From a virus: DNA of 64,000 nt. Below the pieces are notes generated by a model. The model had not been told where the DNA came from. It did not search any database and was given only the letters and a program-made list of their open reading frames with translations. Made by a program: the position numbers and the translations under genes. Positions 16,180 to 61,200 of this stretch are shown in pieces. Position 1 is the first letter of the stretch, and each line of letters starts with the position of its first letter. Where the stretch lies: the IMG/VR virus record IMGVR_UViG_3300023084_000003; one strand, written 5' to 3'.

Positions 16180-16190
16180 GCTGCCTTCTG
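16170..16190 (+). terminator. GC hairpin with GTAA loop containing the DUF932 stop codon
   Basis: GGCAGC-GTAA-GCTGCC; weak T-tail. Confidence 0.45.
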
Positions 16191-16202
16191 AAAGGTAAAG
16201 AA

Positions 16203-43650: not shown

Positions 43651-43651
43651 A

Positions 43652-44347: not shown

Positions 44348-44351
44348 ATTT

Positions 44352-44855
44352 TCACCTTTCCATAATATTAAATTCTATATTTGCCACATCTCTATTTATA
44401 GTCTTTTTTAAGTTTATCACTCTATGCCTAAATTCGTCCGTTTGATTTAAAACCACGATATCATATTTCTTTGGATATATTGTAACACGATTGGGTGAAT
44501 TTTCTCTTTTGATTTCAATCCCGCCACCAGTTGATTCATCCATGTCTGTTAAATACATTAAGAAAGCTATATTAGATCCTTCTATATGATCTGTGTGCCA
44601 TGTATCTGTTTGTTGATCTATACCTCTCCAAGCATCTACATTACCAAAAATAGAATCTTTGTCTTTTAAAATTAAACGATTTATTTTCTTTTGAGTTTTT
44701 CTTAAAAGCCACAAACCTATTGGCCAATAATGAATTGGATATTTCGCTCCATGATTCTTTATCATTGGACATCTATAGAACCACTTTAAATAAGTAAAGA
44801 GTCGTGGATCATTAAAATGATCGTATCCTTCTATTTGTAGCTTTTCATAATTCAT
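44352..44855 (-). CDS. 2OG-Fe(II) oxygenase (HxD...H)
   Basis: WHTD, FLMYL, GGGIEI, FRHRV, R.VANIEF. Confidence 0.8.
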   Translation of the reverse strand: MNYEKLQIEGYDHFNDPRLFTYLKWFYRCPMIKNHGAKYPIHYWPIGLWLLRKTQKKINRLILKDKDSIFGNVDAWRGIDQQTDTWHTDHIEGSNIAFLMYLTDMDESTGGGIEIKRENSPNRVTIYPKKYDIVVLNQTDEFRHRVINLKKTINRDVANIEFNIMER

Positions 44856-45262
44856 TCATCTACAGATTCTAAAATCTCTTCTTTGTAATATTCATATATA
44901 TCCGGCACCATACCAGTCATATCAACTTCACCGATAGCATCAAGAATAGCATCATATGTATAACGATCTTCATCGTATGGAACAAAGTAAGGATCGTGCG
45001 GTAATAGTTCTGAGTCGTTTAATGTATCATAGAAATCTTCTTCAAAATCATCACCAATCCATGTCGCATAACAAATCGCTACTACATAAGATTTAGATGG
45101 GTAGATCCATTCATCTACATATTCTTCGAAGTGGCGAACTGCTTCTGTAATAATATCCTCGCCTTCTACTAAATTAATTTCTACGTCTCTCAGATCATCT
45201 TTATATTCTGCATCTCCGTTGACCATACTGAAATATTGCTGCCTGATTTTCCATTCTTTCAT
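44852..45262 (-). CDS. Hypothetical acidic protein
   Basis: 136 aa, ATGA-coupled within the cluster. Confidence 0.7.
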   Translation of the reverse strand: MKEWKIRQQYFSMVNGDAEYKDDLRDVEINLVEGEDIITEAVRHFEEYVDEWIYPSKSYVVAICYATWIGDDFEEDFYDTLNDSELLPHDPYFVPYDEDRYTYDAILDAIGEVDMTGMVPDIYEYYKEEILESVDE

Positions 45263-46008
45263 TATGCCTCGTATTCCTTTAGTAATTGTGCCTTATCACA
45301 AAAATCTAGATATGCACTGGTGACTTTATAGTGATTATAGAAAAATAACTTCTTAATTCTTTCCCATATGTTTCTTTCTACCATTGGGTAACCAAACGTA
45401 AATACGATTGATTCGTAATGAGTATATTCACGATTCATTTGAATATTCCAAAACTTGGTAAGATCCTCGTCGGTGTATGGTTTATCTCTCCTGTCTGCAA
45501 TAGGAGAGTTAGCGAACGAGAAATCATCGTAAACTATATGTAGGTGTATTGCGTCAGACCACCAAGGTACTGGTTTCTTTGGCCTTTCGACTGTATTTAT
45601 TGCGTTGTCATACCAGTAAATATCACAACCAAGTTTATTCACTTCTTCTATAAATTCTTGCTTCTGCTCTTTTGTATTAAATACGACTCCTATATACCTG
45701 TGTCTGGAATCGTCGTGGCCTTGACAACTTGTGTATGTCAAGTAGCCTTTCTTATGTAACTCAAGTACTGCCCTCTTCACACCGGGCTCTAAATTTTTAT
45801 CGATTATATCTGAGTACTGACTTACAAATGTGCTTACATATTGCCCAAGATGATCTCGGAACATGTAAGTTCTTCCGTTGACGAGATGTAGATTACCTTT
45901 TTCAAACATAGCATAACGATGACCATCTTCTACACTTCGTAAATGAGGATCGTCTTTTCTGCTATATTCTTGTTGATACTGTACTCTATACTCGTACTGC
46001 GTCTTCAT
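45262..46008 (-). CDS. Hypothetical protein with T-x-x-S-C-x-G-H motif
   Basis: IDKNLEPGV...L...GYLTYTSCQGH, reminiscent of the Tyw3 TxSSCSGR motif. Confidence 0.6.
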   Translation of the reverse strand: MKTQYEYRVQYQQEYSRKDDPHLRSVEDGHRYAMFEKGNLHLVNGRTYMFRDHLGQYVSTFVSQYSDIIDKNLEPGVKRAVLELHKKGYLTYTSCQGHDDSRHRYIGVVFNTKEQKQEFIEEVNKLGCDIYWYDNAINTVERPKKPVPWWSDAIHLHIVYDDFSFANSPIADRRDKPYTDEDLTKFWNIQMNREYTHYESIVFTFGYPMVERNIWERIKKLFFYNHYKVTSAYLDFCDKAQLLKEYEA

Positions 46009-46909
46009 TATACCATTCTAGTAGGTTGAAATAACCGTTGCAACCGTTTTGTTTTGGTGGGAATGCTACAAATTTGTAGTGCTCGGTTAAACACTTTCCA
46101 AAATATTTGCATTGCCTACATATATCTGATACACCACTGTTCTTTTCTTTTACGGTCCATTGTTCATATTCTAGAAAGGATTCCAGTTCCGTAAAGCTTT
46201 CGTTACCAAGTAAGTCGAAATCCAATACACCAAACTTGCCGTTAGGAGTAATATACACATGATCATCGCTAAAGGCGTTATAATTGCCATCTAAACATTC
46301 CTCTATCTTATCTTGATTTATGAATTGAAAGTTCTTCTCAATAGGACTATCAATCCATTTCATAATAAACTCTTCGTATTCAAGATCAGTAACATACTGC
46401 TTACGATGAGTTGTAGAGCTGAATGGTTTAATCTCTACAGCAATCAGATTGCCTAGAGTGTTAAACATATTAATCATATAGTCTACATCTTCATTTATAA
46501 CATATTCTGATGCTAATGTCAATACCGAAAATGGTCTATTTAACTTAAGCATATTACCGAACACGATCATCTCTTTCTCGCGAGCACCAAAATCATATGA
46601 TACAGATAGATCAATATCTTCTCTAAGAAATGATTTACGTATTGCAGAAAGATTGGTAATAATCGAGATCGTACATTCGTATTTATCTTTGATTCTATCG
46701 ATCAAATCATCTAAATATGTATCAGGTAGAATACCAATCTCACCACCATAAAGATCGATGTGTGTCACAGTAGGCTTAATCTCACTTAATCGTGCCATAA
46801 TTGTGTCAATAGATGTAGTTGTTCTGTCACGTAGTTGTTCTTTACTTAGATAGCAGAAATCACAATTAAAGTTACAAAAATAGGTAGGGTTAATCGATAC
46901 TGAGAACAT
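45986..46909 (-). CDS. Radical SAM / SPASM-type protein
   Basis: CNFNCDFC (CxxxCxxC), YGGE, C-terminal CRQC..FGKC...C; start moved to ATG 46909 behind GAGG. Confidence 0.92.
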   Translation of the reverse strand: MFSVSINPTYFCNFNCDFCYLSKEQLRDRTTTSIDTIMARLSEIKPTVTHIDLYGGEIGILPDTYLDDLIDRIKDKYECTISIITNLSAIRKSFLREDIDLSVSYDFGAREKEMIVFGNMLKLNRPFSVLTLASEYVINEDVDYMINMFNTLGNLIAVEIKPFSSTTHRKQYVTDLEYEEFIMKWIDSPIEKNFQFINQDKIEECLDGNYNAFSDDHVYITPNGKFGVLDFDLLGNESFTELESFLEYEQWTVKEKNSGVSDICRQCKYFGKCLTEHYKFVAFPPKQNGCNGYFNLLEWYNEDAVRV

Positions 46910-47942
46910 CAATTTCCTCATTCACATATGGGGTTACACTGTTTGGATCTAATCCGTTAATTTCTAAAATACGAGGGGCAAGAGATTTCATGTGTTTGCA
47001 ATGAGATTCTGCTTGCCCTTCTCGCTTCATATCACGCACTGTTTTTTTACAGCCATTACATATTTCAAACATAGGACAACTATAACAGGCTTGCTTTAAT
47101 GTTTGAATATTAAAGTCATCTTGTAGTGGAGTGGAAAATCCTCCGTTTAACTCATGTTCAAAGGAGATAGGATAATCCCTATCATCACCAAAGGAACCAC
47201 AAGAATAGTAATCGCCTCCAGGATTGAAGGCCCGTATGTGTTCGTCGCATCGACGATTTTGTGGACAACTTGTTGCATTACCTTTTAACCTCCGCATCAT
47301 TTGCTTGGTATTATATTCCCACTTCCACAGACCTCGATCGTAAATTTCGACGTAAGTCTCATAAATCTTACTTAGTCTGTAAGTGGACCCTTGTATACCA
47401 GAGGCCATAGCATAATTGAGTTTGCATTCGACATCCATTTCCTTAGCAAGCTCAACATTACGAATAGCATCTGGTGCATCTTCATCAGTCATAACTGCAA
47501 TAAAATCTGGACGATATCCAACAAGATCTAGCATCTTATTCGATGCCAACCAGAAATCTTTCTCTGTGAAGATTGTGTAATCGCCTTTTAAACGACCTTT
47601 ACCATATTGGAAACTGGTACATATTCCTAGACGTGGGTGGCGAAACAAATCTATCCACTTCTCTGGCTTTACAACAAAAGGCCATAAATTGGTTGTGAAA
47701 CTAATATTCGCAGGATAGTCATGCTCATCTAAATGATCTATAATCTTCCAATAATAACTAGGTTCCACCATCAAAGGGTCGCCACCATTTACGATAATGG
47801 TGCGAGTGTGAGGATACCTCTTTAAAAATTTGAAAATATAATCATGATCCAAAAGCTTTGCTTTATTCGGATCAATATCTGTAGACGAACAGAAAGTACA
47901 CTTAAAGTTGCAAGCTTCTGTCGGCTTTATTATTAGTTCCAT
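46890..47942 (-). CDS. Radical SAM / SPASM-type protein
   Basis: CNFKCTFC, GGDPL, CPQNRRC...SCG...CYSCPMFEICNGC...C. Confidence 0.93.
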   Translation of the reverse strand: MELIIKPTEACNFKCTFCSSTDIDPNKAKLLDHDYIFKFLKRYPHTRTIIVNGGDPLMVEPSYYWKIIDHLDEHDYPANISFTTNLWPFVVKPEKWIDLFRHPRLGICTSFQYGKGRLKGDYTIFTEKDFWLASNKMLDLVGYRPDFIAVMTDEDAPDAIRNVELAKEMDVECKLNYAMASGIQGSTYRLSKIYETYVEIYDRGLWKWEYNTKQMMRRLKGNATSCPQNRRCDEHIRAFNPGGDYYSCGSFGDDRDYPISFEHELNGGFSTPLQDDFNIQTLKQACYSCPMFEICNGCKKTVRDMKREGQAESHCKHMKSLAPRILEINGLDPNSVTPYVNEEIDVLSID

Positions 47943-48963
47943 TCAATAATTCCATCATCAAAGTTTTAGGTGCAGGACAAACGTCACCTTGCCATTCAAG
48001 TTGGTGGCAGTCGGAGTGGCAATAGGCAAATACCGGACACGAATAGCAACGTGGATCTCTTATGACTTGTTCGTCGATAATTACCTTTTGCCGCCCCTTG
48101 CTATTTATAACGTCTTCTACTGATTGTTTAATATTGCCATAATGATCGGTAGGAGCAGCGTTAGGGCAGCCAGCAATAGTACCATCCGCATTAATCGTAA
48201 ATAATTTTTGTTCACAATCTCTGCAAAACGTTCCTTGGTGTAAGAGTCCTTTTTCAAATTTGTTATAGACCGTTTCCATGAAGACATCTTCAAACTCCTC
48301 TCTTATATCATAACATTCCTCATATGCTCTCATAAAGAAATCTTGAAGTGCTGCATTCGTAGGATAAAGCTTTTCGCCATATAACAAAGCATTACCATTA
48401 CCGGTAATACGTTCCCAAGATATTTCCGTGATGCCAAGACCTCTCAAATAATCAATCATTTCTCGAGGAGACCTATTGACAACGTCCTTAGATAATGATA
48501 CAAATGCTTTAAGAATGAATCCTTGATCTACTAAGAATCTTACGTTGTCTTCCCAAAGCTTTTCTTGCTTTTCATTTGCAAAGCGTATTGTTGGATCCCA
48601 TGATGTTCCAATACGTTTACCTGTCATTACACGAGAAAAGAAATCTAATCTATCATCTGTTAACTTATATGTAAGATTAGTTGTAATACCGAATGAACCT
48701 CTTACGCCCCATACGCTTTGTACTCTATTATAGAATTCAAATAGATCTTCGGTTTTAGCAAGCATAGGCTCGCCACCGTGATATTCAAAGTGGCATATTT
48801 TTGTGCCATCATATAACTGATTAACCCAGTTAGCGGTAGCCACTGGGTCAAAGTATATTTTAGCTCCGTTGATTCCGCTTGTAAAGCAGTGGAAGCAATT
48901 TAAGTTACACGTCTCCGTGGTCTTGACGTATACACTCAGATTGCTCTGTATCGGACAAACCAT
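47902..48963 (-). CDS. Radical SAM / SPASM-type protein
   Basis: CNLNCFHC, HGGEP, CRDC...GCPN...CYSCPVFAYCHSDC...C. Confidence 0.93.
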   Translation of the reverse strand: MVCPIQSNLSVYVKTTETCNLNCFHCFTSGINGAKIYFDPVATANWVNQLYDGTKICHFEYHGGEPMLAKTEDLFEFYNRVQSVWGVRGSFGITTNLTYKLTDDRLDFFSRVMTGKRIGTSWDPTIRFANEKQEKLWEDNVRFLVDQGFILKAFVSLSKDVVNRSPREMIDYLRGLGITEISWERITGNGNALLYGEKLYPTNAALQDFFMRAYEECYDIREEFEDVFMETVYNKFEKGLLHQGTFCRDCEQKLFTINADGTIAGCPNAAPTDHYGNIKQSVEDVINSKGRQKVIIDEQVIRDPRCYSCPVFAYCHSDCHQLEWQGDVCPAPKTLMMELLNGTNNKADRSLQL

Positions 48964-49402
48964 AACTAAACATTAATCCTTCTCGTACATTCAATGCTCT
49001 GTGAGGAGTATCTGCGGGTATTTGCCAAAAGTCTCCCTCCTCAAGATTATGAATAACGTCGTTCACTTCAATTGTTTTATGACCAGCACTTACATGTAAT
49101 AATACATCAACTGGGTCGGTATGTACACCAAAACTTGGCGATTCTTTCCAGTATCTAAAAGCATGAATGGTGCCTTCTTTAAAGCCACAAACGTGTTCGA
49201 TACCTTCAACCTTTATTGTATCATTAGATTCTGCAAGCTTTACTTGTACCTTTGCTAAGTACTCATTGTAGTCATCTGATACTATTTTAACATCTTTTCC
49301 ACGATTGTCAATATATAATGTGCGATCATACATATAAGCTTCATGGCTTAGTACGTATTCTTCAAAGTCTTCGTAGGACCATTTTAAATTAGGCAGTTGC
49401 AT
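48905..49402 (-). CDS. JmjC/cupin-like oxygenase
   Basis: SFGVHTDPVDV (HxD), G.K.IEV, GDFWQIP..TPH.A. Confidence 0.8.
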   Translation of the reverse strand: MQLPNLKWSYEDFEEYVLSHEAYMYDRTLYIDNRGKDVKIVSDDYNEYLAKVQVKLAESNDTIKVEGIEHVCGFKEGTIHAFRYWKESPSFGVHTDPVDVLLHVSAGHKTIEVNDVIHNLEEGDFWQIPADTPHRALNVREGLMFSYGLSDTEQSECIRQDHGDV

Positions 49403-51305
49403 ACTCTAGTTCCTTTGTTTGAGTAGGCTGAGAAAATGCCCTTACAAAGAGTTCGTTAAGAAGAATGATTTCATTATCGTCTTGTGTGAGTTCCATGATG
49501 CATTCTAATCTAGATTTGTTGCCAATAATTCTTTTCAATCCACGAGGTGGAGTGTCTGGATTCAAAATGTCTACAATATTTTCGTGCACCTCGTCAAAAC
49601 CAGGAATACAATCACGAATTACAGCGTAACACATTCTGCAAAACTCTGCTGGAGTAAGAACATCTTTAAATGTGTCATAATGCTTTTGCAAAAGAATATT
49701 ACCACAAACATTCATAAACCACATCTCATGAAATTCTTCGCGAGTAAATGAATAGCAAGATGCAATTGTTTTAAAGTAAGACTTTAGGCCACGATATAGA
49801 CCATATCTATTATCAGCCCCGCCTTCTTCAATAACATCGGTATAGCATTCCACAACTTCAATATCATACTTTTTTATATATTCAGGATCTGTAAGTTCAG
49901 AATCTGGTAGGAACATATAGTCATGTCTCCATGAACCGTATGATTTAAAGTTATAGTAAATCTCATACTCATTATAGAAGTCATCTATAGTAGATCCAGG
50001 CATTCCTAGAATTAATTCTACGGGTGGCTTTGGATAACCTTCAACGTTGCAACGCTGATTAATATGGCGCGCGAGTGCTAACTTATCTTCTAAATTTAGA
50101 TCAACTCTATTTACTACATCCATAGCTTCTTTACTAATACTTTGGATACTTACTGTTGGAACTACTGAGATATAAAGAGCTTCGCCTTCTGCTGCTTGCT
50201 TTCTTCTAATATCATCTTCCCAGTCTTCTCCATCTTGCTCACCAAAATTATCAACCATTCCACGGCTCGTATTCTGTTCATTGAATACGTGAATTGTGGT
50301 ACCCATAGCCTGATTTTCTGCCGAGCCCATAAAGAACAATGCATGAGAACCTTGCTCAGGTACAAACACTTCTGAGTGCTTCTCTTCGCCTGTTCCTAAC
50401 GTGTCAAACCATGCATCAACAAGTTTCTTTCTTCTTGCAAGGTCTCTTGATTTAAAAGTTGAGATGTCGGTAAGATTAAATCCATTCTTAAAGGTCCAAT
50501 CAAAGATCTCGATGTCTCTTTCTAAGAATGCGCCGAAGTTTGCATCGGTAAGATAAGCATCTCGGAAGCCTGCGTCTTTCAAAGCCTCAACATCTCGCTT
50601 ATAAATGTCTAGATCTTTCTTATAGATCTTAGTACCAATACCTCCGCCCCATTCACAGAATGCACACTTAAATGGACAGCCACGAGTAGATTCTAATGCC
50701 ATGAATGGCTCAAGTACCTGAGTACGAGCCCACTCGCGCATTTCTTTAAGATAATCCATATGTTCTTCATAAACAGAATAATCTTGGTCTGCGATATTTA
50801 GAACACCTTTTTTATTTGAGCGCCATTCCCAAGTTACATCTTCATGTTTTGGCCATTGATTTAAATTATTAAAATATCCATCAAGCAGAGAGTTCATGAA
50901 TATTTCGCCGGGCTTGGTTACCTGACAAATATAATCATATAGTTCATATCTTAGATTCATTAGTTTTGGCTCGTTACGACCAATATGAGGTCCGCCGATT
51001 ACTGTAATAGCTTCTGGGTTTTGCTCTCTTACGAGCTTAGCAACCTCATCGCACATCTGATAGTTCCAAATATATGAACTAAAGCAGTATACGTCAAGAG
51101 GTTCTCCCTGCTCCATATCTTCTTTAATTTCTTGGAAAGATCGATACACGTCAAATTTGTATGTTGCAGGAACAAACTCTACTTTATCGGGATACATTCC
51201 CTCATGTTTATAATGACTTTCTAACATCATCCACGTCAAATTAGACGGCGTTTGCCAATCTGCATGAGGTGGTGACATGTAACCTAAACGTAATTTTTTA
51301 CTCAT
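49389..51305 (-). CDS. Cobalamin-binding radical SAM enzyme (class B methyltransferase-like)
   Basis: N-terminal B12-binding-type domain (FSSYIWN, VIGGPH), STRGCPFKCAFC, DANFG, ELILGMPGST. Confidence 0.9.
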   Translation of the reverse strand: MSKKLRLGYMSPPHADWQTPSNLTWMMLESHYKHEGMYPDKVEFVPATYKFDVYRSFQEIKEDMEQGEPLDVYCFSSYIWNYQMCDEVAKLVREQNPEAITVIGGPHIGRNEPKLMNLRYELYDYICQVTKPGEIFMNSLLDGYFNNLNQWPKHEDVTWEWRSNKKGVLNIADQDYSVYEEHMDYLKEMREWARTQVLEPFMALESTRGCPFKCAFCEWGGGIGTKIYKKDLDIYKRDVEALKDAGFRDAYLTDANFGAFLERDIEIFDWTFKNGFNLTDISTFKSRDLARRKKLVDAWFDTLGTGEEKHSEVFVPEQGSHALFFMGSAENQAMGTTIHVFNEQNTSRGMVDNFGEQDGEDWEDDIRRKQAAEGEALYISVVPTVSIQSISKEAMDVVNRVDLNLEDKLALARHINQRCNVEGYPKPPVELILGMPGSTIDDFYNEYEIYYNFKSYGSWRHDYMFLPDSELTDPEYIKKYDIEVVECYTDVIEEGGADNRYGLYRGLKSYFKTIASCYSFTREEFHEMWFMNVCGNILLQKHYDTFKDVLTPAEFCRMCYAVIRDCIPGFDEVHENIVDILNPDTPPRGLKRIIGNKSRLECIMELTQDDNEIILLNELFVRAFSQPTQTKELEYATA

Positions 51306-52411
51306 TTATCTCTCTTCGAATCCACATATCTAAATAGTTCTTTGTTTATACACTCGTCCATGTCCTGCTTCATGTTTCCAGCTTTAATTCCTGAGAAACA
51401 CATCATAGGACATCTTTGATAAAATTCGCATGCATGACAATTATATTTATCAAGGAAACTCGTTAAAGTATTATCAAGAAAATTATCTGGTCCGTTATGT
51501 TGGCGATAAGAAGGCGAGTTAAACTTCTTCAAATAATGAGAGCCAACACATCCTTCTGGAATAATCTTATTGTCCCAATCAATAGCAGCACCATTACCAC
51601 GAGAACATATCGTATGCATCTGATGGTCTTTTGGCTGCATAAAAGGTATAATATATTCTACTTTTGGGTATTTGTCAACCAATAATTTATAAAAAGCTAA
51701 AACTTCTGATTCTAAAGGTATCTCAACGTCGTTATGTTCTGTTCCTTTAATGTATTGATCCCAAGAATAATCAAATCTGCTATATAAGTAATCATAATAT
51801 TCGTCACCTGCTAGTAAAGCTTGAATATTTTGTTTTGTAATCACTGAGTTAATATTACGAATATAAGGTGCAAAGATCTCAATATTCTCTTTAAATATCT
51901 GTAAGTTCTTTTGATTAAATCTACCTTTTAAATCAAACGATACAACGAATGTCGTATCCTCACCCTGCTCATCCATGAACCGTTTAATTTCATCTCTGGT
52001 CTCAACCATACTAAAATTAGAGATCCAAATGAATTCTAGTACTTGATCTGTGAGATTTGTTTTTTCTCTCACTCCATTTGCAAGATCTCTATAGGCTTCT
52101 AGGAGATTAGAATCTTTTAGGATAGCGTCATTAAATGGTTCACCACCAATCATTCGAACAACAAATTCTGTAGCAAAACTATTTTGATTAATATATTCAG
52201 CAATAATATCTGCTTTAGATACTATAGACTCATAGTTCATACCTTTTTTACTATTATGATCTTGTGGGCAAAATGAACACGCAAAGTTGCAGTACTCAAA
52301 GAGTATTACAACAATCTCGCACGACTTATTTCTTTTTTCGAAAATTAGATTTGCAGCGGTGTCAGAGCCCCACTTATCACCAGTCTCGGTGACATCAATC
52401 ATATTAATCAT
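51302..52411 (-). CDS. Radical SAM / SPASM-type protein
   Basis: CNFACSFC, GGEPF, C...C...CHACEFYQRCPMMC...C. Confidence 0.9.
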   Translation of the reverse strand: MINMIDVTETGDKWGSDTAANLIFEKRNKSCEIVVILFEYCNFACSFCPQDHNSKKGMNYESIVSKADIIAEYINQNSFATEFVVRMIGGEPFNDAILKDSNLLEAYRDLANGVREKTNLTDQVLEFIWISNFSMVETRDEIKRFMDEQGEDTTFVVSFDLKGRFNQKNLQIFKENIEIFAPYIRNINSVITKQNIQALLAGDEYYDYLYSRFDYSWDQYIKGTEHNDVEIPLESEVLAFYKLLVDKYPKVEYIIPFMQPKDHQMHTICSRGNGAAIDWDNKIIPEGCVGSHYLKKFNSPSYRQHNGPDNFLDNTLTSFLDKYNCHACEFYQRCPMMCFSGIKAGNMKQDMDECINKELFRYVDSKRDK

Positions 52412-52423
52412 TACAAACCTTTA

Positions 52424-53596
52424 TTACGTATGGCTGAATTTATTTAACTGAGTTGTATTTTCTGCAATTTTTAATTGATAAAGATACTCAATCCAAAATG
52501 TATTTATTTTTTCCTGCATATATTCATAGTGCCAAACTTTAGTAGTTCCCTGATAAGTAATATCATCTGCAATAATATCTTCCCAAGCTGTATCTCTTAT
52601 TTCTGTGTTAGATAAGTTTGTTCCATCTATTCTATTAAGCATTCCTTCAGCACCTTTAATAACATCCTGAAGCTCGACGTCGTTAGCATCGTCTGCGTTT
52701 GTATTATCTACAACCCATTGAAGCCATCCCAAGCCTACATCCCAATGCGCAACACGGTATTCCCAGTTTTCTACAAGGGCGTCGTAGGATCTGTCAAAAA
52801 GAAAATCCATATCAGAATTCGCAGCTCTAAGTGAAGTCATCCAGTTTGGATCGGTCCAGTTCAATGTTACGCCAGTCATAGAGCGAACTTTTTCTGTCAT
52901 AATATTATCTCTAATATATTCTCTTAGATCACTAACAATTCCAAAGCCAATTTTTGAATGTATTCTTTGACCTTTTATTGCAATGGGAGTTATTGTAATG
53001 TCACCACACAAATATGCTGCGAGCTGAATCTCAATACACAAACTGTCTCTTAAAGCGTCTCGAACAGACGTATAATAAGAAGCCTCAACAGTATCTGCCG
53101 TATTAAATGCATTATATGCGGTTGCGAATTCTGATTGAGTATACACTGCTTCTGCCATTGCGTCAGCAACTCTAATAGCAGAAAAAGATCTGCTTGACAT
53201 ATTATCAACTTCTACAAGTTTTTCTCTTTGTCTTGTTATATTATAGAGTATAAAAGCAGCGTCAACATCTATATTTGGCATTGCTACTTTAAGCCAAGCA
53301 AAGAACAATTTATGATATGATTCAGCGTCTGCATATATTCTTCCAGACCAATCATTATCATATAAAGATTTAATAAAGTGAGCATATGATTCGTGCTGGC
53401 CCTCATCGCTTCCAATAATATCATCTATTGAAGCTGTCCAATGAAGTATTTCAGTTCCATAGCCAGGACTTGCAAGAGTACTCATATTAGTATATTGATG
53501 CTGATTTCTTTCAACAGAAAATACAGCTCTATCCTGAGAGTTATCATAAGCCCAGTCTGGAGAAACATATACTTTATCAAATAGGTTAAACGACAT
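52424..53596 (-). CDS. Hypothetical protein
   Basis: 390 aa, no recognisable motif, inside the radical SAM operon. Confidence 0.75.
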   Translation of the reverse strand: MSFNLFDKVYVSPDWAYDNSQDRAVFSVERNQHQYTNMSTLASPGYGTEILHWTASIDDIIGSDEGQHESYAHFIKSLYDNDWSGRIYADAESYHKLFFAWLKVAMPNIDVDAAFILYNITRQREKLVEVDNMSSRSFSAIRVADAMAEAVYTQSEFATAYNAFNTADTVEASYYTSVRDALRDSLCIEIQLAAYLCGDITITPIAIKGQRIHSKIGFGIVSDLREYIRDNIMTEKVRSMTGVTLNWTDPNWMTSLRAANSDMDFLFDRSYDALVENWEYRVAHWDVGLGWLQWVVDNTNADDANDVELQDVIKGAEGMLNRIDGTNLSNTEIRDTAWEDIIADDITYQGTTKVWHYEYMQEKINTFWIEYLYQLKIAENTTQLNKFSHT

Positions 53597-54683
53597 TCTT
53601 TTTTAATTCCTCTGGTATACATTCGTCCCATTTGCCAGCCGCAATTACTTTTGTTTGTACACAAAGAGTGTTTGCTTCTGTATCAAAGTACGAAAACATG
53701 TTTCTTCCTTTAAATCTATATTCATTAAATTGATTCGTGAAAATCTTTCCTTTTCTATCTCCAATAGATCCTATATAATATCCAATCCAAGGCAGAGCAT
53801 ACGTATTAACAAAGTTAATTCCTACATAGTCTGGATCATCTACCTCTTCAAATGTTTTTTCAACAAAATCGTTAAACTCAGGAATATTTAAACATTGAAA
53901 ATTAAAGATTGGAGATGAGTCTAACATCTCACACCATCTTTTTACAATATCTAAATTCTCTTCAATAAAATCTTCTGCATTATTTAGTCTTTCAAAGTAC
54001 ATGTAAGGTGCTAGTGGATCATCACAAAATTCATCAATTTCTTCTTGATCAACAGTAGGAATATTAGTTCCAAACTCATACATTGGTTTCAGCACTTTCA
54101 TATATTGACAACAAACCGCCAATGCTTCTCTTGCTAACTGCTCAATATCAACCAAAGCTGTTGTTGTGCTCATGTAAGCAGCAACTAATTCTTTTAAAGC
54201 ATCTCTATCATTATAAGTTTCTTCATCAAAATCTGCATCTAGATTCAAGTTACTTAGATAGATCATCAAAGCATTTGCGTCTAGTTTACCAGCTCTATAG
54301 TTAATCTTAAAAGCAGTATTCTCTTTATCCTGAAAGTACTCTTTTAAAACCTCCATAGGTAAAGGACAGCTTGTTTCAATAATCTTTTTTGGTTTTAAAG
54401 CCTGTTTTTTCTTAAGATCTTCTACACTTTCTTGTACATCGTCATTATAAGAGTTGTCTCGGATAACCGCTTGAATCTCTTTACTTACTTGCTCTTTAGA
54501 AGATTTTTTAGGTTTAATATCATCAGCGTTTTCTTCTACGAATTTAAGCACTTCTTCCTTTGTAATGCCTACATTTTTTAAAGCATTCCAAGAAGTAATA
54601 GAAAGATCTTGGTTTCTTTCCCATTCAGATTTTAGAGTTTCAAGTTTTAATCCGGCTTTTTCAATTTTTTCTACAAGATTCAT
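53586..54683 (-). CDS. Hypothetical protein
   Basis: 365 aa, acidic helical, inside the radical SAM operon. Confidence 0.75.
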   Translation of the reverse strand: MNLVEKIEKAGLKLETLKSEWERNQDLSITSWNALKNVGITKEEVLKFVEENADDIKPKKSSKEQVSKEIQAVIRDNSYNDDVQESVEDLKKKQALKPKKIIETSCPLPMEVLKEYFQDKENTAFKINYRAGKLDANALMIYLSNLNLDADFDEETYNDRDALKELVAAYMSTTTALVDIEQLAREALAVCCQYMKVLKPMYEFGTNIPTVDQEEIDEFCDDPLAPYMYFERLNNAEDFIEENLDIVKRWCEMLDSSPIFNFQCLNIPEFNDFVEKTFEEVDDPDYVGINFVNTYALPWIGYYIGSIGDRKGKIFTNQFNEYRFKGRNMFSYFDTEANTLCVQTKVIAAGKWDECIPEELKKNVV

Positions 54684-54695
54684 TATATAAATTCC

Positions 54696-55271
54696 TTATC
54701 TTCTTCCTCTAGAACTGTGACAACTTGTATGACAGCTATTGTGACAATACGTAATATCAAAGTCTGCTCTATTATCTTTTAATGTATCCCATGCATTAAA
54801 TAAATTAGTGCAAAGGTTATTAAAATCAGCAGCGTGCGCAACTTCATCTTCTGTAACACCACCACTGTTAACTAATGTCATAGTTTGTCTTTGCCCAGTA
54901 TCACGGACAGTAATACCGTCAGCAGATCCTCTCTCTGTCACTGTGCCACCATCATTCTGGCGAAGCCATCTCACCTTACACTGGCGTATGTTAGTGAGGT
55001 TTCCAGTTGCCGCAGTAAGATGTAAATAAACCTTCACCGCTTCAATAGTCGTACCATCATCACCAATTCCAGTGACTGTTACATCAGAGCTTGGATTATC
55101 TGCAGCATAATTAGCGTCTGGAGCTACCTGCCCATCATCTACGCCTGTAGTCGGTGTGTGTTTTGCTGTAGAATGATACACGATTGTATTGTGGGCTGGA
55201 GTTTCCACCGCATCAATAAATGCCTGTCTCGCTGCTGAATTTTCTATTAAATCGCCTGCTGTTACCGCCAT
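54696..55271 (-). CDS. Protein ending in (CHxS)3-RGRR; candidate substrate of the radical SAM cluster
   Basis: C-terminus CHNSCHTSCHSSRGRR checked in DNA at 54696-54746; first gene of the cluster. Confidence 0.8.
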   Translation of the reverse strand: MAVTAGDLIENSAARQAFIDAVETPAHNTIVYHSTAKHTPTTGVDDGQVAPDANYAADNPSSDVTVTGIGDDGTTIEAVKVYLHLTAATGNLTNIRQCKVRWLRQNDGGTVTERGSADGITVRDTGQRQTMTLVNSGGVTEDEVAHAADFNNLCTNLFNAWDTLKDNRADFDITYCHNSCHTSCHSSRGRR

Positions 55272-58200
55272 TAGACTTTCACCTCCACTATTCCATTTTC
55301 ACTATTGCTCAATGCGATACCAATGATTTCATGACTATTTATACCGGGCGTGCCGTATGGAACTCCCTTACACTTACCAACAGCTTCTGGATCTGGAATC
55401 AACCACATACCTTTTTTAACATCACCAGATACGAATGCTGGAATACGACCTTTTAGAGCAATAAATGGATTCATTTTAGCTTTTTTAGATTTGTCATTTT
55501 CAATGCCCATATCGTTCATTCTAACGCCAGGTTCTGTAGATATAACACCAACCATTGGTAAACCTTCGCGCCATACTGTAATTTCAGCATCACCATCTAG
55601 ATCAATACCCATTAGAGTGCCTGGCTCATAGATATCATCTGCAGAATATCTTTCCGCAAGGTCAGCCCAGCGAGCGCTTGTTGCAGTACCATTATAAACA
55701 CCATCATTATCAACGTGAGCTTTATCACTTCCATCTCTACGGAACTGACAAATACGGTTTGAGTTACCACCGCCAACAATATAGAAACGATCTGAGTGAT
55801 ATTCAATCTTACCTCTATCGTTACCTGGATCTCCTGTCCATTGAACGTCAGGTTCGTTGAAACGCATGCCTGGAGAATATCCATCTCTGTGAGTCATGCG
55901 GAACATCCATTCTCCGCCTGAGTTTAAGAAACCTTGCCACAACGAATCACTAGAACTATCACCTTCACCATGAATCCAGAAACGACTTCTACCGTCAAAT
56001 GTAGCCAAACCACGAAGGTTCATTGCGCTGTCATTATTGTTACCAGTCATTCTCCATTCTTGGGAATTCGTAGCATAGAAGTCTGTACCATTAGCGTCAT
56101 TGCGCAAGCCGCGGCCGTCACTATCGTTCCGATACCAACCGTCGTTATCAATATTACCTCTAATATCAAGGCTGTTCATGCGTGATGTGCCGGCTGGGTT
56201 CGTATAATAGAAAGTGTTGTTTCTATCATAGAAAATCGGTGCACGCATCGAAGTGTAGGATTGGCTGTTCCCGCTGTTATCTACATAGAAACGTGTAGAT
56301 TGGGCGTCTTCGTCCCAAACCACAAACACGTTTTCATCTGCAGCACCACCAACCATAACGCCGTCATCGGTAATTTTAATAAAACCAACATCAGAACTAT
56401 ATCCAGTTTGAAGAATAAGACCATATCCATCTAGGCCGTAGTTGTAAACTGTTGAGTTTGTGTTTGGAGTTCCTCGTGTAGTTCTGTCACCGTAGAAAAT
56501 ATAACCTTCGTAAGTGTAACTCCCGCCAGTATCAACAAACGATATTTTTCCATTTAATGATAATTCATTTAGCTTTGTAGTACTTGCTGGATCTGCATAG
56601 TAGCCTGAATCATTTCTATCATAGTAAATGTCGCCGTAGACAGAGCCACGAAGATATGAAGTACCATTGATATCGAGAGTATAAGCAGGACCAGATGTCG
56701 TAGATCCACCAAAGCCAGAGCTTATTCTTCTTGCTACTGTAAGATCACCGTTTGTTGTAAGTGACATAGCACCTTGAGCTGTAGTATGACCCGTGTCACC
56801 CCACCAGAAACCACGATCATCCTCATCATTGAACTGGAATGTCATAGCCCAGTCATTCAGAGCACCAAACGTAACATCTGATTGCATACCAATGGCATAA
56901 GATGAGCTACTATAAACACGAATTTTATCACGAGTAGAGTTTGCAGGACCAACAAGCCTGTCGAAATCCATTGTGGAAATATTTGAATTTCCGTTCGGAT
57001 TTATATAGTAATTAGTGTCGTTACTATCATAGAAGATAGGTGCACGGTAGTCACTAGAAGCTTGTCCAGTACCTCTAATATAAGAACCGATTTGTTCCCA
57101 ACCATTAACAGAACCAGCTTCACAAGTACGCATCCATGCTGAGCCAACTGATCCCGTGTAGTTAGATCTTGGATATGCTACTTCTAACCAGTAATCAGAG
57201 CTACCATAGTTCAATCCGTATTCTTGTCCAAGAGATGTTCTTACACGATACCACTGACTTGAACCTGTGTTAGGCGCGTTTGTATTACCTTGTACATAAC
57301 TCCAACCCCAGTGATTAACTGCAGCATTAAAGTCAGTATATGTGTTGTGATTGTACCATTGACCAAACTGACCAACTGCAGAAACACCTTGTGTAGCAGA
57401 TCCTCCAGACCCAGTAACACTATTAAAGCGAAGAACATTTAATCTTGTAGTACCAGCAAAGTCGCCGTAATAGTTCGTATCATTTTTATCATAGTAGATA
57501 GGAATATATGCAGCCCCTGTTGCATAAACTCTACCATTAGAACCATCTAGACCAACTCTTGCATCACCATCTGCTGCAACGTATAGACCCCATCCACCAA
57601 GAACACTATTGATACCATCGTAATTGGCATTCGGGTGTGAATAACCAATACCGTACATATTTTCCAAGTTACCATCGGTTGGGTTGTAGTTCGAACCGAT
57701 TGTGTAAATTGGGTTTGTTTTGGTTGAGTTGGCGCCGATATTATTATATGAACCAACTAGGTGGCCTCGAGAGTGGCCTGGTCTATAGCGATAATCAACG
57801 TTAGTACCGTTCATTCTAGACGTAGAGTTACCATCAAAGAAGTAACTGGTATTACTCTGATCGTAGAATACAGTACCTCGTACATCGCCTTGAGCAGTAA
57901 TATTACCGAAGTAAGATCTCATGTTGTATGGACTACCGCCAGCAACTGAACCTAGCGTTCCACGGAAACCTTGACCTGAAAGAATTGTATTTGTAGAATC
58001 TGCTGGACTACCTGGCTCAACTTTTGTGCTGCCGTCATTAGTAGTAATACCATCCTGGCGAATCCATCTCCACCATAACTGCGAATCCCAAGTACAGCCA
58101 TTCATTCTCAACCATAGATATCTATTGTTGTCAATTCTAACTTCTGGAGTAATACTATCGTTTGGATAATTTGTCTGATGGCCGACTGACATTGTCGAGT

Positions 58201-61200
58201 TGTTCCAAGAAGAAACAACCACAGTACCTTTTACAAAGCCTGAATAGTTTACATCATCCTTTGCGTAATATTCAAGAATACCTTTCGCCCCGCCGGTGTT
58301 TGTACGGCCAACGCGGATCCAATAATAACGAGTTCCATTGGTTGAGTCATAAACATATGTACTTGTGTTATACCACCTACCGGTCCAAGGTTGGTTTTGC
58401 GAATAACCACCAACTGTTAAACCGTTAAGGTTAGATGTGCCTGCCGGATCAACATAATATGAGGTATTATCATTATCATACATGCTGTCAGCAAACAAGA
58501 TGTTCTCAACGCGTACGTTATCGTCGCCTTTACCTACTGAGAAGATCTCAGATCCACCGCCGGCGTCTCTTCTTGAGTCATTGTAGAATCGTGTACCACC
58601 GTATGATTTGTTAGCTCCGATTTGAATACCAGTATGCCAGTTCAAGCGAAGCTTAGAGTAATCACCACCGTAATTCTCCTTATCAACATAGATCATGTAG
58701 TAAGGTTGGCTATCGGATCTCTGACCCCATGAAATGCCTGTTACACCCCCGTCAGCTTGAGACGGATCTGATGTAGAATCCCAAAGATTGAGGTGACGAC
58801 CTGGACCAGTAGAGCTACCGTCTCTAAGTAGGAACCCACCGCCGAGCTCTTCGTATCTGTCAGAACGGAAAGCATCTGCCGCCTGGACTGTGTTTAGATT
58901 AGATGTACTTGCCGGATCAAGATAGTAATTTGTATCATTTGTGTCGTAGAATATTGGAGCTCTAACAGATGCGTTATGATAGAACTGAGCAGAATCCATC
59001 TCGCCCATAAGAGTTCTACCATAGTGCATAAATCTTAGTTTACCGCCACTTGCTCCTGATGTAGTTTTATTACCAGAAATACCGGCGTATTCACGGTATG
59101 TGCCACCATTATCTTTTAATCTAAAGTAAAAACCTGCACCAACAGAAGAACTACTATTATCATGGTTTGCACGAGCCAAACGAAGAACGCCATAATCTAC
59201 TGAGTTGCTATTTGTTCCAGTATCTTGAATCATATCAAATGTTACCGGCCCTCCAGTAGTTTGAGAGCGGAAATTGGCCGTACTGGTGCCGGTATTGAAA
59301 TACAAGGAGTTGCTGCTGTACAACCTAATGTTAGACATTCTCGATTCGCTAGCAAAGTTGCCATAATATGAAGTATTATTTGAATCGTAATAGATCGGAG
59401 ATCTCATATTGGATGATGCATAAGCCTCACCGCCAACATGGAAAGTATATGAGGGGCTTGTGGCATTAATACCAACTCTACCATTGTACATCCATGTCAT
59501 AAGCTCGGTGCCGCTAGAAGTAAAGTCAGCACCAAACAAACTGCCACTATTAAATCTCAGGAACATGTTACCAGTAAATTTGTCATCCATACCAAACATG
59601 AATGATGAGTCGCCAGTACTGCTTCCTCCAGTTAGATCGCTGAATTCAATGCCAACGTCACCGTTGTAATTCATAAATCTCATGCGGCCTTCGTTGTTGG
59701 CATCACCCAACATATCCATCCAAACTTCTGTGCCGTTGTTATCAAGCCTAACTCTACCAGCAAGGCGCATTGCCTCACCGGTGCTGTTTGGATTTATATA
59801 ATAAGATGTGTTATTAATATCATAGAAGATAGGAGCGCGCATATCGCCTCTGGCTTGCAGAGAACCACCATTTGTTGCTCTAAATTGATACTGCTGAGCT
59901 CCACCAGTAGTTGCAGTAAACTGTAGATTACCGCCTGAGTTTGTAGTTAGATCATCTGGCGATTCATAAATTCTCCAGTCAGTACCACCTTTCCAACGAA
60001 TACCTTCGTTAGGACCCGGATCATTAAACGCTATATCGTTCAGGTTATCAATGGTACCATTATTCCAGTTCCATGAACCTTCAACACTACCGCCAGTAGC
60101 TGGGTTCATGTATCTTGCAGTATTATCACGATCACGGAAGTTGCTTGCATCAACAGTATTCATCTTAGATGTTGAAGCAGGATTTACATAAAAGTTATTG
60201 TCATTGCTGTCATAGAAGATAGGCGCATAAAGGTTACCTGAGAATCTTGCTTCTTGGGCATCGATGTTTGAAAGATAGTTTGTACGTCTTACAATCGGAG
60301 GACCAAATTCGCGAACAGCACCAGAACCTGCATAGTTCATCAATACGATAACACGAATATATTTACATCCACCGCCGTCAGAACCGTTAAATGGTGAATG
60401 CGACGTTGGAATTGTATGATGGGCTTTATATGTAGTCCAACCCGTGCTTGTTACATTTGCAGCAGAAGCTACAAAATATGTGATACCATCGTTACCTGCA
60501 ATAGGGTTCTTATCTTTATCGTATCTACGTACACCCATATAAAGATAACGAGTACCACCAGAGTCAGAACCACTTACAAGTCTAGCCGAGATCTCACCGT
60601 AGATCTCCATGCCAGGCTCAACTGCGATATAGTCAGAGTCGAATGTTCTGTAACCACTTGTTCTTAGAGCATATGAAGCCTCAAAAGGACCGTCATTATT
60701 TTTGACGAAATCAGCAGTTGAAGTTGTAGCAGAGTCTTCTGCTCCTTGCATAACCTGAATAACACGTTTTTCCCAATATTCAGTACCGTCGAATATAACA
60801 GTATCGGCTTTACCGGAACCATATGCTTTAATAAGGCTAAGATCTTCATTACCGCCGTTAAGAGCAATGTTAGCAAAACGGCCAGTACCGTATGCTTGGA
60901 AATCACCATTTTCTTCAAACCAGAATCTATCACCGATAGAATTAAAGTGAACAATAAAGTTCGAACGATTGTTTCTGTCGTCATGGACCAACCAAGGATA
61001 GTTAGCATCAGCTGCACTATTTTTAAACGCAGCCAAATAACGGTTAGCGTGATGGATCTTAAATGGATACGTGCTGTCAGTAGAAATTCTAGCTTGGTCA
61101 CCAACCGAGATAGACTTCATTCTAGAGTCTGATGCAAAGTCTCCCCAGTATGCAGTGTCTGCGCTATCATAGTAGATAGGAGCACGCATTTGGTTATTAG

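Follow-up and report, generated by a model that had tools for sequence, protein, structure and literature searches.

A conserved Cys-His-x-Ser tail linked to radical SAM genes, a candidate modification site on a fibre-associated phage protein

In the viral record IMGVR_UViG_3300023084_000003, of which a stretch of 64,000 nt was analyzed (the window), a 191-aa protein ends in three Cys-His-x-Ser units followed by Arg-Gly-Arg-Arg. Which function would require such a tail on this protein? The earlier note on this DNA had regarded the tail as a new core motif, or a metal-binding tag, on a leader or structural domain of about 175 aa, by analogy with the Hxs system. The tail and its nearest neighbors are arranged as follows.

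54696..54746, minus strand: C-terminal tag CHNS-CHTS-CHSS-RGRR with its TAA stop; residues invariant family-wide, pattern unique in the window.
54696..55271, minus strand: tagged protein of 191 aa, from a family of at least 881 clusters; alpha/beta body without known fold and a tail predicted to be flexible.
55271..64000, minus strand: giant fibre gene (more than 2907 aa) that continues beyond the window; its stop and the ATG of the tagged gene overlap (TAATG).
55336..55343, minus strand: TATAAATA, an octamer resembling T4-type late promoters, located 65 nt upstream of the ATG of the tagged gene.
53586..54683, minus strand: p365, mostly helical (phrog_20767), of the family that is the usual immediate downstream neighbor of tagged genes.
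52424..53596, minus strand: p390, which usually follows p365; its family is present in 61 loci.

The open reading frame closes with ...DITY-CHNS-CHTS-CHSS-RGRR-stop. The earlier note had located the motif exactly, because the codons for residues 176-191 lie at 54746..54699 and TAA at 54698..54696. Its claim that synonymous codons differ among the repeat units follows from the His codons CAC/CAT/CAC and the Ser codons AGC/AGT/AGT/TCT, and its count of only two further Cys residues in the protein corresponds to C98 and C154. The DNA pattern for CH-x2-CH-x2-CH occurred once in the window, compared with 0.00 expected from 100 shuffles. We calculated that the full degenerate pattern should occur with a probability of about 1e-13 per position, yet it matched at least 119 viral contigs.

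The tail consensus is [V/I/Y]-C-H-x-S-C-H-x-(S/N)-C-H-x-S-R-(G/S)-R-R-COOH. In 19 homologs, down to 23% identity, C176, H177, S179, C180, H181, C184, H185, S187, R188, R190, and R191 were invariant, and these 11 tag residues were the sole invariant columns among 55 diverse relatives, whose mean column identity was 14%. A profile search yielded 881 protein clusters at the 50% identity level, a lower bound for the family size. The terminus CHxxCHxxCHxxRxRR was found in 138 of the 150 best-scoring cluster representatives, with a median of 0 Cys residues elsewhere in those proteins. Conservation of the motif in homologs, on which the earlier note had made its proposal depend, was thus confirmed at all three depths of comparison. 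Nearly all members seen carried three repeat units and a few carried four.

The scan with the DNA pattern gave matches in contigs of both kinds, at least 119 viral and about 25 genomic. A stop codon directly followed the motif in almost all of the approximately 140 viral open reading frames and in all of the approximately 25 true genomic matches, whereas it did not in the few chance internal matches, viral or genomic. Matches in actinobacterial and other GC-rich genomes were rejected as chance, being internal low-complexity CHRS-type runs without enzymes. When the tagged protein of the window was used as a tblastn query against isolated phages, no match was obtained despite the presence of family members there, because of excessive divergence among the bodies and the low complexity of the tail. 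Literature searches on the motif and on phages, radical SAM enzymes, and structural proteins returned no description. The tagged proteins constitute a large, previously undescribed family found in big phages and predatory bacteria.

The earlier note had proposed a search for the motif at protein C-termini with tabulation of the neighboring genes, and held that the idea fails if most tags lack radical SAM neighbors. In this search, a radical SAM-like gene lay within 6 kb of 133 of the 136 C-terminal tags with flanking sequence, compared with one of nine chance internal matches, so that the co-occurrence stands. In loci with a single tag (type I), a radical SAM gene of the 353-aa type was directly upstream in 73/83 and a p365 family gene directly downstream in 75/89; the p365 family was present in 101/119 loci overall. 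In loci with tandem tags (type II), a gene of a different radical SAM family came next downstream in 18 of 21. The recurring neighbors were the fibre gene, a JmjC-like cupin, a SPASM radical SAM enzyme, the tagged gene, and two unknown proteins. This linkage persisted at a freshwater homolog of 23% identity, whose locus also carries NifU and IscA genes, in phiKZ-like jumbo phages, and in Bdellovibrionota chromosomes without this fibre type, where the cassette adjoins pilin-headed fibre-like proteins. The tagged protein and the enzymes are the constant core of these neighborhoods. Four viral fragments that encode the 350-aa enzyme showed no tag; they are about 20-40% complete and, being incomplete, do not speak for tag-less cassettes.

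The genes of the enzyme cassette in the window are as follows.

51302..52411, minus strand: radical SAM enzyme, 369 aa, with homologs in 63 tagged loci.
49389..51305, minus strand: B12-binding radical SAM enzyme, 638 aa; Pfam B12-binding and Radical_SAM below cut-off.
48905..49402, minus strand: JmjC-like cupin, a 2OG/Fe(II) oxygenase; Cupin_2 and JmjC_2 above cut-off, invariant HxD...H triad.
47902..48963, minus strand: radical SAM/SPASM enzyme, 353 aa; SPASM above cut-off, tightest linkage to the tag among the enzymes.
46890..47942, minus strand: radical SAM/SPASM-like enzyme, 350 aa, with very conserved homologs.
45986..46921, minus strand: radical SAM enzyme, 311 aa.
45262-46008: protein of 248 aa, between the 2OG oxygenase group and the radical SAM genes.
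43090..45262, minus strand: small protein p136 and three 2OG-Fe(II) oxygenases (167, 231, and 197 aa; Pfam 2OG-FeII_Oxy_3/5), often companions of the cassette.

The 353-aa enzyme scored 27.7 bits with PF13186 (cut-off 21.5) and 35.9 bits with TIGR04085 (cut-off 27). A homolog was present in 89/119 loci and is elsewhere usually the immediate upstream neighbor of the tag. Its CX3CX2C motif (C19, C23, and C26) and eight C-terminal Cys residues were invariant in 30 homologs, and its profile aligned over the full length with the anaerobic sulfatase-maturating enzyme (anSME) 4K36-39 (E 5e-6). The 350-aa enzyme showed 51-60% identity to jumbo-phage homologs and E values down to 1e-131 with Bdellovibrionota homologs; an apparent insertion or intron in its homologs was rejected, as an adjoining paralogue had merely been joined to the match. 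The cupin scored 29.7 bits with PF07883 (cut-off 27.2) and 23.6 bits with PF08007 (cut-off 22); H94, D96, and H134 were invariant in 57/57 sequences and K109 in 56/57, and in other loci the gene is usually placed two genes upstream of the tag. The 638-aa enzyme gave 102 bits against the KedN5-type C-methyltransferase family (cut-off 700) and is an optional member of the cassette, present in only 14/119 loci. Pfam and NCBIfam searches detected no RRE/PqqD-type recognition domain in the cassette proteins, and no protease or transporter was recognized in the cassette by Pfam, PHROG, or NCBIfam. From conserved residues and profile scores, the enzymes look active and of a protein- or peptide-modifying type.

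The two proteins downstream of the tag have no known fold. p365 was modeled by AF2 with a pLDDT of 81; it had no fold match (best E 0.29), the Atlas search was blank, and its alignment contained no conserved catalytic-looking residues. For p390, no Pfam, PHROG, or NCBIfam match was obtained, and only Y10, D90, K103, and E189 were conserved.

On the upstream side, the last 140-190 aa of the fibre (about 55274-55840) are a conserved C-terminal domain that also ends the fibres preceding tagged genes elsewhere, as supported by BLAST against the locus genes, PHROG tail-fibre matches, and a conserved A-DLAE-Y motif; Pfam and PDB sequence searches of this domain gave no match. The A-DLAE-Y region may resemble Peptidase_G2-type intramolecular chaperones. 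The tagged gene is translationally coupled to the fibre gene. The octamer was matched 11 times in the window against an expectation of 6.2, and 10 of the matches were on the gene strand; TATAAATA may weakly be taken as a late-promoter-like element. The arrangement recalls the gp38-type adhesins or fibre accessory proteins of T-even-like phages, whose genes directly follow a long fibre gene and are coupled with it; moreover, one tagged relative is in the virion and one is fused to Pfam Gly_rich_2. The tagged protein differs from known adhesins and chaperones in lacking sequence or fold similarity to them, and the known adhesins and accessory proteins have no dedicated enzyme cassette.

The AF2 model of the tagged protein had a pLDDT of 84, falling to about 50 or lower in the tail, which is therefore modeled as flexible; the first tag Cys stands directly after a beta-strand of the body. 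Fold searches with the body returned no meaningful match (PDB Foldseek best E 0.8; VIA wide search best Z 3.7) and no ferredoxin- or flavodoxin-like fold. Its matches in BFVD were uncharacterized phage proteins only, among them the homolog of Agrobacterium phage Atu_ph07. The bodies form one fold family that includes longer members, the carriers being about 110-300 aa, and are highly diverse; the Gly_rich_2 fusion is to a glycine-rich domain.

The Atu_ph07 member (AUZ94952, 31.89 kDa, terminus CHSSCHASCHNSRSRR) corresponds to gp170 in the published virion proteome, the two masses agreeing exactly. Virion mass spectrometry detected gp170 with eight unique peptides and 35% coverage, and its peak was in gel band 1, whereas for other proteins near 30 kDa the peak lies in band 8; neither the neighboring enzymes nor the p365 homolog is in the virion list (PMC6102473). 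Presence of a family member in the virion is thus proven for the Atu_ph07 homolog only. The anomalous band could reflect an SDS-resistant oligomer instead of a covalent change. In phiRP31, the small ORF70, a candidate counterpart by its equivalent position next to radical SAM genes, was absent from the virion mass spectrometry list, which comprises only 32 proteins, and we draw no conclusion from this. The motif and the radical SAM linkage proposed in the earlier note are sustained by these data; the option of a leader for the body of about 175 aa is not, because the body is retained in the virion (with the 35% coverage above) and belongs to one fold family with the longer members. The tail is therefore better called a modification site than a RiPP 'core peptide'.

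We conclude that the tail probably serves as a site of modification, on a structural protein associated with the fibre, rather than as an excised RiPP core. Because the tagged gene almost always adjoins several radical SAM genes, the tail is most likely the target of the neighboring radical SAM enzymes; the substrate of these enzymes could instead be the fibre, another protein, or a small molecule. Cys-derived thioether rings or anSME-like Cys oxidation, together with hydroxylation of His or Arg, would be the most plausible chemistry. The tagged protein would be made late, right after the long tail-fibre gene, and the co-encoded enzymes would act on its flexible C-terminal tail within the infected cell. 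The enzymes of this step would be the SPASM-type radical SAM enzymes (beginning with the 353-aa type), the JmjC-like 2OG/Fe(II) hydroxylase, the further radical SAM paralogues, and the 2OG oxygenases, joined in some phages by an additional B12-radical SAM methylase, with p365 and p390 as presumed non-catalytic helpers in presentation or assembly. The matured protein would then join the virion at or near the fibre with the conserved, cleavable-looking C-terminal domain, whereas the enzymes and helpers would be left out, and it may have a role at the fibre tip. Such protein maturation would be of a kind that, to our knowledge, has not been reported for phage particles.

Cys/His-rich tails can bind metal, and metal sites are common at the tips of phage fibres and spikes; T4 gp37, the P2 and phi92 spikes, and PAAR tips have His or His/Cys sites. 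The tag could likewise chelate Zn, Fe, Cu, Ni, or an Fe-S-like center through the three Cys and three His of each chain, or more of them in an oligomer, stabilizing or sharpening the fibre or tip; the enzymes would then modify something else, such as a glycan, the fibre, or a small molecule. Cys-His pairs in alternation make good ligands, these proteins have practically no Cys outside the tag, the tagged protein is in the virion and encoded after the fibre, and the NifU and IscA genes of one distant locus indicate that iron-sulfur handling matters to the module. We nevertheless regard this explanation as distinctly unlikely. In natural tails that bind metal, length and spacing are usually variable, whereas the tag is fixed at three units (four in a few) with an invariant Ser, and metal binding requires neither this Ser nor the terminal R-x-R-R. 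Moreover, the radical SAM neighbors of 133/136 tags would be left unexplained, as would the togetherness of tag and enzymes where the fibre type changes or is not found. The fixed length and spacing and the terminal R-x-R-R are more in keeping with a signal recognized by conserved enzymes than with a loose tail for metal binding.

Release of the modified tail from the body, serving as a large leader or scaffold, would make the system a true RiPP or a source of a peptide-derived cofactor such as PQQ or mycofactocin. This is very unlikely, although the C-terminal segment and the SPASM enzymes recall the layouts of PqqA/PqqE and MftA/MftC, in which a C-terminal segment is modified with SPASM enzymes, and many tailoring oxygenases are present. 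A protease could hide in p365 or p390, but no protease, transporter, or RRE was recognized in the cassette; p365 has no conserved catalytic-type residues and p390 conserves only the four residues given above. The body is kept in virions and has a conserved fold family with longer members, and the modeled beta-strand runs directly up to the first tag Cys. It is least probable, and hardly credible, that the tagged protein is not a substrate but an Fe-S carrier or electron donor for the radical SAM enzymes. The Cys/His ligands, the obligatory co-occurrence with Fe-S enzymes, and again the NifU and IscA genes in one locus would suit such a service; the tagged protein, however, is in the virion and the enzymes are not, its gene is coupled translationally to the fibre gene, its bodies are very diverse, with even a fusion to a glycine-rich domain, and the ferredoxin- or flavodoxin-like fold is missing.

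The Hxs system (HxsA, the radical SAM proteins HxsB and HxsC, and HxsD) is an anti-phage defence in which HxsA, with His-x-Ser repeats, undergoes radical SAM maturation with a +8 Da change in a SHRSS motif (PMC13128918). In the tagged protein, tandem His-Xaa-Ser occurs as H-N-S, H-T-S, and H-S-S, each preceded by Cys. Both systems involve a folded protein with short H-x-S repeats rich in basic residues, Hxs maturation is carried out by radical SAM enzymes of which one is SPASM-type, and an accessory non-enzyme protein partners one enzyme. The tag differs in its period of 4, the invariant Cys before each His, the nearly constant three repeats, the extreme C-terminal position, and the R-G-R-R end; its carrier is a phage virion protein, whereas HxsA is a periplasmic peptidoglycan-binding effector, and the window cassette has 4-5 radical SAM enzymes plus the cupin and 2OG oxygenases. 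The best score for HxsB (TIGR03978, cut-off 370 bits) was 30.7 bits, for the 353-aa enzyme, and three enzymes scored 18.3-24.8 bits for HxsC (TIGR03977, cut-off 267.9 bits). No NCBIfam match to HxsA or HxsD was obtained at E<=0.01 for the tagged protein, p365, p390, or the 248-aa protein. The analogy drawn in the earlier note thus extends to the form of the repeat and not to the enzymes, which fall far below both thresholds, and the tag cassette is not a member of the Hxs system.

Parallels are also found among SPASM enzymes. Like the 353-aa enzyme, whose profile aligns throughout, anSMEs are SPASM radical SAM enzymes, and they act on Cys or Ser of a full-length protein. Their sulfatase motif is C/S-x-P/A-x-R, for example CTPSR, and the last repeat of the tag, C-H-(G/S/N)-S-R, has Cys at 0 and Ser-Arg at +3/+4 in common with it. 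In the tag, Arg is present at +4, but Pro/Ala at +2 is absent in most members; scores with TIGR03942 were 38.2 and 46.3 bits (cut-off 349 bits). The tag carrier is no sulfatase; its motif is repeated three times and is accompanied by several enzymes. Regularly spaced Cys (C-x3 repeats) beside SPASM enzymes are also a feature of ranthipeptide, sactipeptide, and CXXX-repeat maturases and of QhpD/QhpC; in Cys-x3-Asp units, PapB builds small thioether rings, and the substrate that QhpD crosslinks is a protein subunit. The tag differs in that the acceptor would have to be Ser, His, or Arg and the carrier, about 110-300 aa long, is a protein without apparent leader or RRE logic; the weak scores for PapB (NF047865, 40.2 bits, cut-off 340) and TIGR04115 (23.8 bits, cut-off 350) do not place the enzymes in these families. 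The general features of SPASM maturases are present: the 353-aa enzyme has CX3CX2C and a SPASM auxiliary-cluster domain, and a candidate substrate gene lies beside the enzyme (73/83 type I loci; 133/136 tags). Likewise, the cupin has the fold match and the HxD/E...H iron triad of the JmjC/cupin 2OG-Fe(II) oxygenase class.

Maturation of phage virion proteins is generally thought to consist of folding, proteolysis, and, rarely, autocatalytic crosslinks. If the tail is indeed modified as proposed, a virion protein that needs 4-5 phage-encoded radical SAM enzymes plus oxygenases would add a new layer of assembly chemistry, and it would account for the gene clusters (radical SAM, Fe-S oxidoreductase, cupin, and 2OG oxygenase) to which jumbo-phage genome papers have assigned no function. 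For enzymology, it would provide a compact SPASM enzyme family that apparently lacks an RRE and is paired with a defined putative protein substrate. Since the tag is short, practically invariant, and easily searched, the system is directly testable in the culturable phages Atu_ph07, RSL2/RSF1, and FLC6.

A broader reading, which we hold only tentatively and consider rather unlikely, is that large phages and Bdellovibrionota share a radical SAM 'workshop' that converts the Cys-His-Ser-Arg tail at the fibre tip to a crosslinked, cationic new end-group for gripping or breaching Gram-negative envelopes. Candidates for this end-group would be a reactive aldehyde, a small polycyclic warhead, or a staple joining the protein covalently to the fibre, and the bacterial HxS-repeat defence effector might be a counterpart of it in evolution or function. 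The position of the Bdellovibrionota cassettes beside pilin-headed fibre-like proteins hints at such a shared device against Gram-negative cells.

The tail CHNS-CHTS-CHSS-RGRR at the C-terminus of the 191-aa tagged protein occupies 54696-54746, which is exactly 16 codons plus the TAA stop of the minus-strand ORF 54696..55271. As the earlier note had described, the His and Ser codons differ from unit to unit, and C98 and C154 are the only Cys besides those of the tag. Counted as a DNA pattern, three Cys-His pairs at period 4 occur a single time in the window; shuffles gave an expected count of 0.00. The motif proved to be conserved: C, H, S, C, H, C, H, S, R, R, and R were fixed in position in 19 of 19 metagenome homologs, with identity down to 23%.

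A degenerate DNA pattern of the motif matched at least 119 IMG/VR contigs, and a stop codon directly followed the motif in ~140 listed viral ORFs, apart from a few chance internal matches. The tag-bearing proteins among the matches listed (~108-305 aa) formed one family by transitive BLAST similarity. We aligned 55 representatives with pairwise identity of no more than ~55%; no column was invariant except those of the 11 tag residues, and column identity averaged 14%. The profile of this alignment, searched against 1.84 billion representatives, retrieved 881 clusters (50% identity), 683 of them at E<=1e-10. Among the best 150 of the 881 clusters, 138 ended in CHxxCHxxCHxxRxRR, with a median of 0 Cys outside the tag, and the other 12 were truncated or near-variants, e.g. 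with an additional Gly ahead of R-G-R-R. The tail consensus was [V/I/Y]-C-H-[S/A]-S-C-H-S-[S/N]-C-H-[G/S/N]-S-R-[G/S]-R-R. A few family members carry a Gly inserted before R-G-R-R or an Asn replacing the last Ser, and two Bacteriovoracia proteins have four CHxS units instead of three (loci L142:864-1430 (+) and L149, about 156-764 (+)).

The window comes from a T4-like myovirus, whose tail sheath is ~40% identical to the sheaths of Stenotrophomonas, rhizobial, and Pelagibacter myoviruses. The start of the tagged gene overlaps the stop of a giant fibre gene (>2907 aa) in the sequence TAATG, and a run of genes follows downstream on the same strand. Base composition is even along this cassette.

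Tagged gene and the genes downstream of it on the same strand
54696..55271 (-), tagged protein, 191 aa
two proteins of unknown family, 365 aa (p365) and 390 aa (p390)
radical SAM enzyme, 369 aa
B12-binding radical SAM enzyme, 638 aa
JmjC-like cupin, 165 aa
three more radical SAM enzymes, 353 aa (SPASM domain), 350 aa, and 311 aa
two further unknowns (248 and 136 aa) and three 2OG-Fe(II) oxygenases

The radical SAM neighbourhood proposed in the earlier note was found at nearly all tags. An ORF counted as radical SAM-like if it was 250 aa or longer and had CX3CX2C close to the start; such a gene lay within 6 kb of 133 of the 136 C-terminal tags that had at least 4 kb of flank. As a control, a scan of 185,579 species genomes gave ~9 matches in GC-rich genomes that were internal CHRS-type runs; they were rejected as true tags because of this position and because a radical SAM-like ORF was close by in only 1/9. 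We also counted, in the fetched loci, homologs of the cassette proteins of the window, going from tag to enzymes; most of the viral contigs were fragments. Among the matches listed, the 119 tag-bearing loci contained homologs of the 353-aa SPASM enzyme in 89, p365 in 86 (101 by transitive clustering), the cupin in 67, the other radical SAM enzymes in 66, 63, and 45, and the B12 enzyme in 14. Two architectures were seen among these matches. In type I (94 loci), the order is fibre, cupin, SPASM radical SAM, tagged gene (protein of ~190 aa), p365, p390, and further radical SAM and oxygenase genes; in cases uncut by a contig edge the gene upstream of the tag was a radical SAM gene in 73/83, and the downstream gene was p365 in 75/89. 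In type II (23 loci), the fibre is followed by two tandem tagged genes (~126 aa each), a different radical SAM family, and p365 further along. The window has a rearranged form of type I, with the cupin and the 353-aa enzyme downstream of the tag. In the most distant tagged locus (a 24-kb JGI contig, sample 3300010885), NifU_N and Fe-S_biosyn (IscA/HesB-type) genes adjoin the B12-radical SAM gene, which suggests that this phage provides the cassette with iron-sulfur cluster assembly.

Bdellovibrionota accounted for ~14 of the true genomic matches, several on contigs of 0.2-1.3 Mb. Two of these loci (~38 kb each) harbor the full cassette with the tagged gene, p365, p390, four radical SAM enzymes, cupin, and oxygenases, one of them also with the B12 enzyme; both cassettes lie amid housekeeping genes and not in a prophage. 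A fibre family with a conserved C-terminal domain, corresponding to the final 140-190 residues of the window's giant fibre, precedes the tagged genes in most viral loci. This domain was not found in five Bdellovibrionota genomes with the query used. Thus, the constant core in phages and predators is the tagged protein, the enzymes, and p365. In the two Bdellovibrionota chromosomes, the cassette adjoins proteins that have a prepilin-type methylation motif at the N-terminus and a Peptidase_S74 intramolecular chaperone domain at the C-terminus; they look like pilin-headed, fibre-like proteins of another type than the phage fibre.

Prepilin/Peptidase_S74 proteins beside the cassette in two Bdellovibrionota loci
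L161:10768-11991 (-)
L164:8597-9640 (+)
L164:10255-11262 (-)

Homologs of the 350-aa enzyme, 51-60% identical, occur with only generic annotation in isolated jumbo phages of Ralstonia (RSL2, RSF1, FLC4, RsoM3USA), Burkholderia (FLC6, FLC8, SURPRISE13), Agrobacterium (Atu_ph07), Sinorhizobium (Phosso), and Pseudomonas (pPa_SNUABM_DT01). ORF068 of RSL2 ends in VCHSSCHTSCHGSRGRR. In Atu_ph07 the gene order is cupin, radical SAM, tagged AUZ94952, p365 homolog, and radical SAM. AUZ94952 (296 aa; MF403008.1 121118-122008, equal to 16119-17009 of our locus L160, (-)) has the C-terminus CHSSCHASCHNSRSRR. By its calculated mass of 31.89 kDa it is gp170 in the virion ESI-MS/MS table; the same matching assigned AUZ94958 (66.07 kDa) to gp176, which carries the fibre C-terminal domain, and AUZ94959 (21.66 kDa) to gp177 (PMC6102473). 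In Atu_ph07 virions, gp170 was detected by 8 unique peptides (35% coverage) in gel slices 1-9, with its peak in slice 1 at the top, compared with slice 8 for other ~30-kDa proteins (PMC6102473). This anomalous migration is suggestive, but no more, of an assembly that resists SDS or is held together by covalent links. Neither the adjacent enzymes nor the p365 homolog appears in the published virion protein list (PMC6102473). Therefore, one tagged family member, gp170, a 296-aa relative of the window's protein, is a structural protein, and its neighbours are not.

The tail is best explained, on comparative sequence grounds, as the putative recognition and modification site of the cassette enzymes, because its length, spacing, and terminal position are fixed, because constraint is far stronger on the tail than on the body, and because the association with a conserved enzyme set is near-obligate in very distant lineages. 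As the leading alternative, the tail may bind metal while the enzymes act on something else; this would leave unexplained the invariant Ser and R-x-R-R, as well as the persistence of the linkage where the phage fibre type was not found. The earlier note had put the tail forward as a putative core peptide, but the presence of gp170 in virions speaks for a modified structural protein as the product and against an excised peptide. The same virion data count against release of the tail as a RiPP or cofactor and against a redox carrier role for the tagged protein, both of which are less likely.

If the tail is modified by the cassette enzymes, several reactions are candidates. Each tail Cys could form a small thioether ring; in their C-x3 spacing the units resemble the substrates of PapB and CXXX-repeat enzymes. 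A tail Cys might instead undergo oxidation like that by anaerobic sulfatase-maturating enzymes (anSMEs); the last unit, C-H-G/S-S-R, has in common with the sulfatase motif a Cys at 0 and Ser-Arg at +3/+4. The JmjC-like cupin and the other oxygenases may hydroxylate His or Arg, and methylation could be added where the B12 enzyme occurs.

The closest described system is the bacterial anti-phage system Hxs, whose likeness to the tail is in form. In Hxs, the substrate of two radical SAM enzymes carries five H-x-S repeats, and its maturation adds +8 Da in an SHRSS motif (PMC13128918). Of the kinship raised earlier, the similar repeat form stands, but the cassette enzymes score 18-31 bits against HxsB and HxsC cut-offs of 370 and 268, and no match to the HxsA or HxsD models was found in the cassette. 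Matches to the PapB, CXXX-repeat, DarE/DynA, and anSME models were equally far under their cut-offs. Our literature search found no paper on the tail motif or on the function of such phage gene clusters, and jumbo-phage papers list the cassette enzymes without function.

The tagged body is modeled as an alpha/beta domain (pLDDT 84) with a low-confidence tail; its fold had no PDB match, and its BFVD matches were uncharacterised phage proteins only, including the Atu_ph07 protein. In P0057, a 453-aa cluster representative, a Gly_rich_2 (Pfam) domain lies N-terminal to the tagged domain; this fusion may point to a tie between the family and glycine-rich fibre-tip proteins, or it may be a gene-calling artefact. 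The p365 protein is mostly helical, with no fold match found and no conserved catalytic-type residues seen, and conserved residues of p390 are Y10, D90, K103, and E189 only. In the 353-aa enzyme family, the CX3CX2C and SPASM cysteines are invariant, and its profile aligns over the full length with an anSME. In the cupin family, the HxD...H triad is invariant and one Lys is conserved, as expected from sequence for an active JmjC-type hydroxylase. The 136-aa protein (44852-45262 (-)) clusters by BLAST with radical SAM families, yet is far too short for one. In both phages and Bdellovibrionota it is found again where the run of enzyme genes ends, and it may represent an auxiliary-cluster or partner domain encoded on its own.

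The giant fibre (55271-64000 (-)) was assigned to tail fibres by PHROG matches. It contains many copies of a unit with the motif (R/A)-A-P-I-F-Y-D-x-(N/D)-(D/N)-T-x-Y-Y, and large stretches are 38-50% identical to 2000-2800-aa fibres of other viral contigs. The octamer TATAAATA lies 65 nt ahead of the ATG of the tagged gene on the gene strand. It is mildly enriched in the window, 10/11 copies are on the gene strand (19836-55343, minus strand), and several lie 20-65 nt before structural-gene starts (sheath, 27187; genes at 19797, 20878, 21602, and 39139), a placement that fits putative T4-type late promoters.
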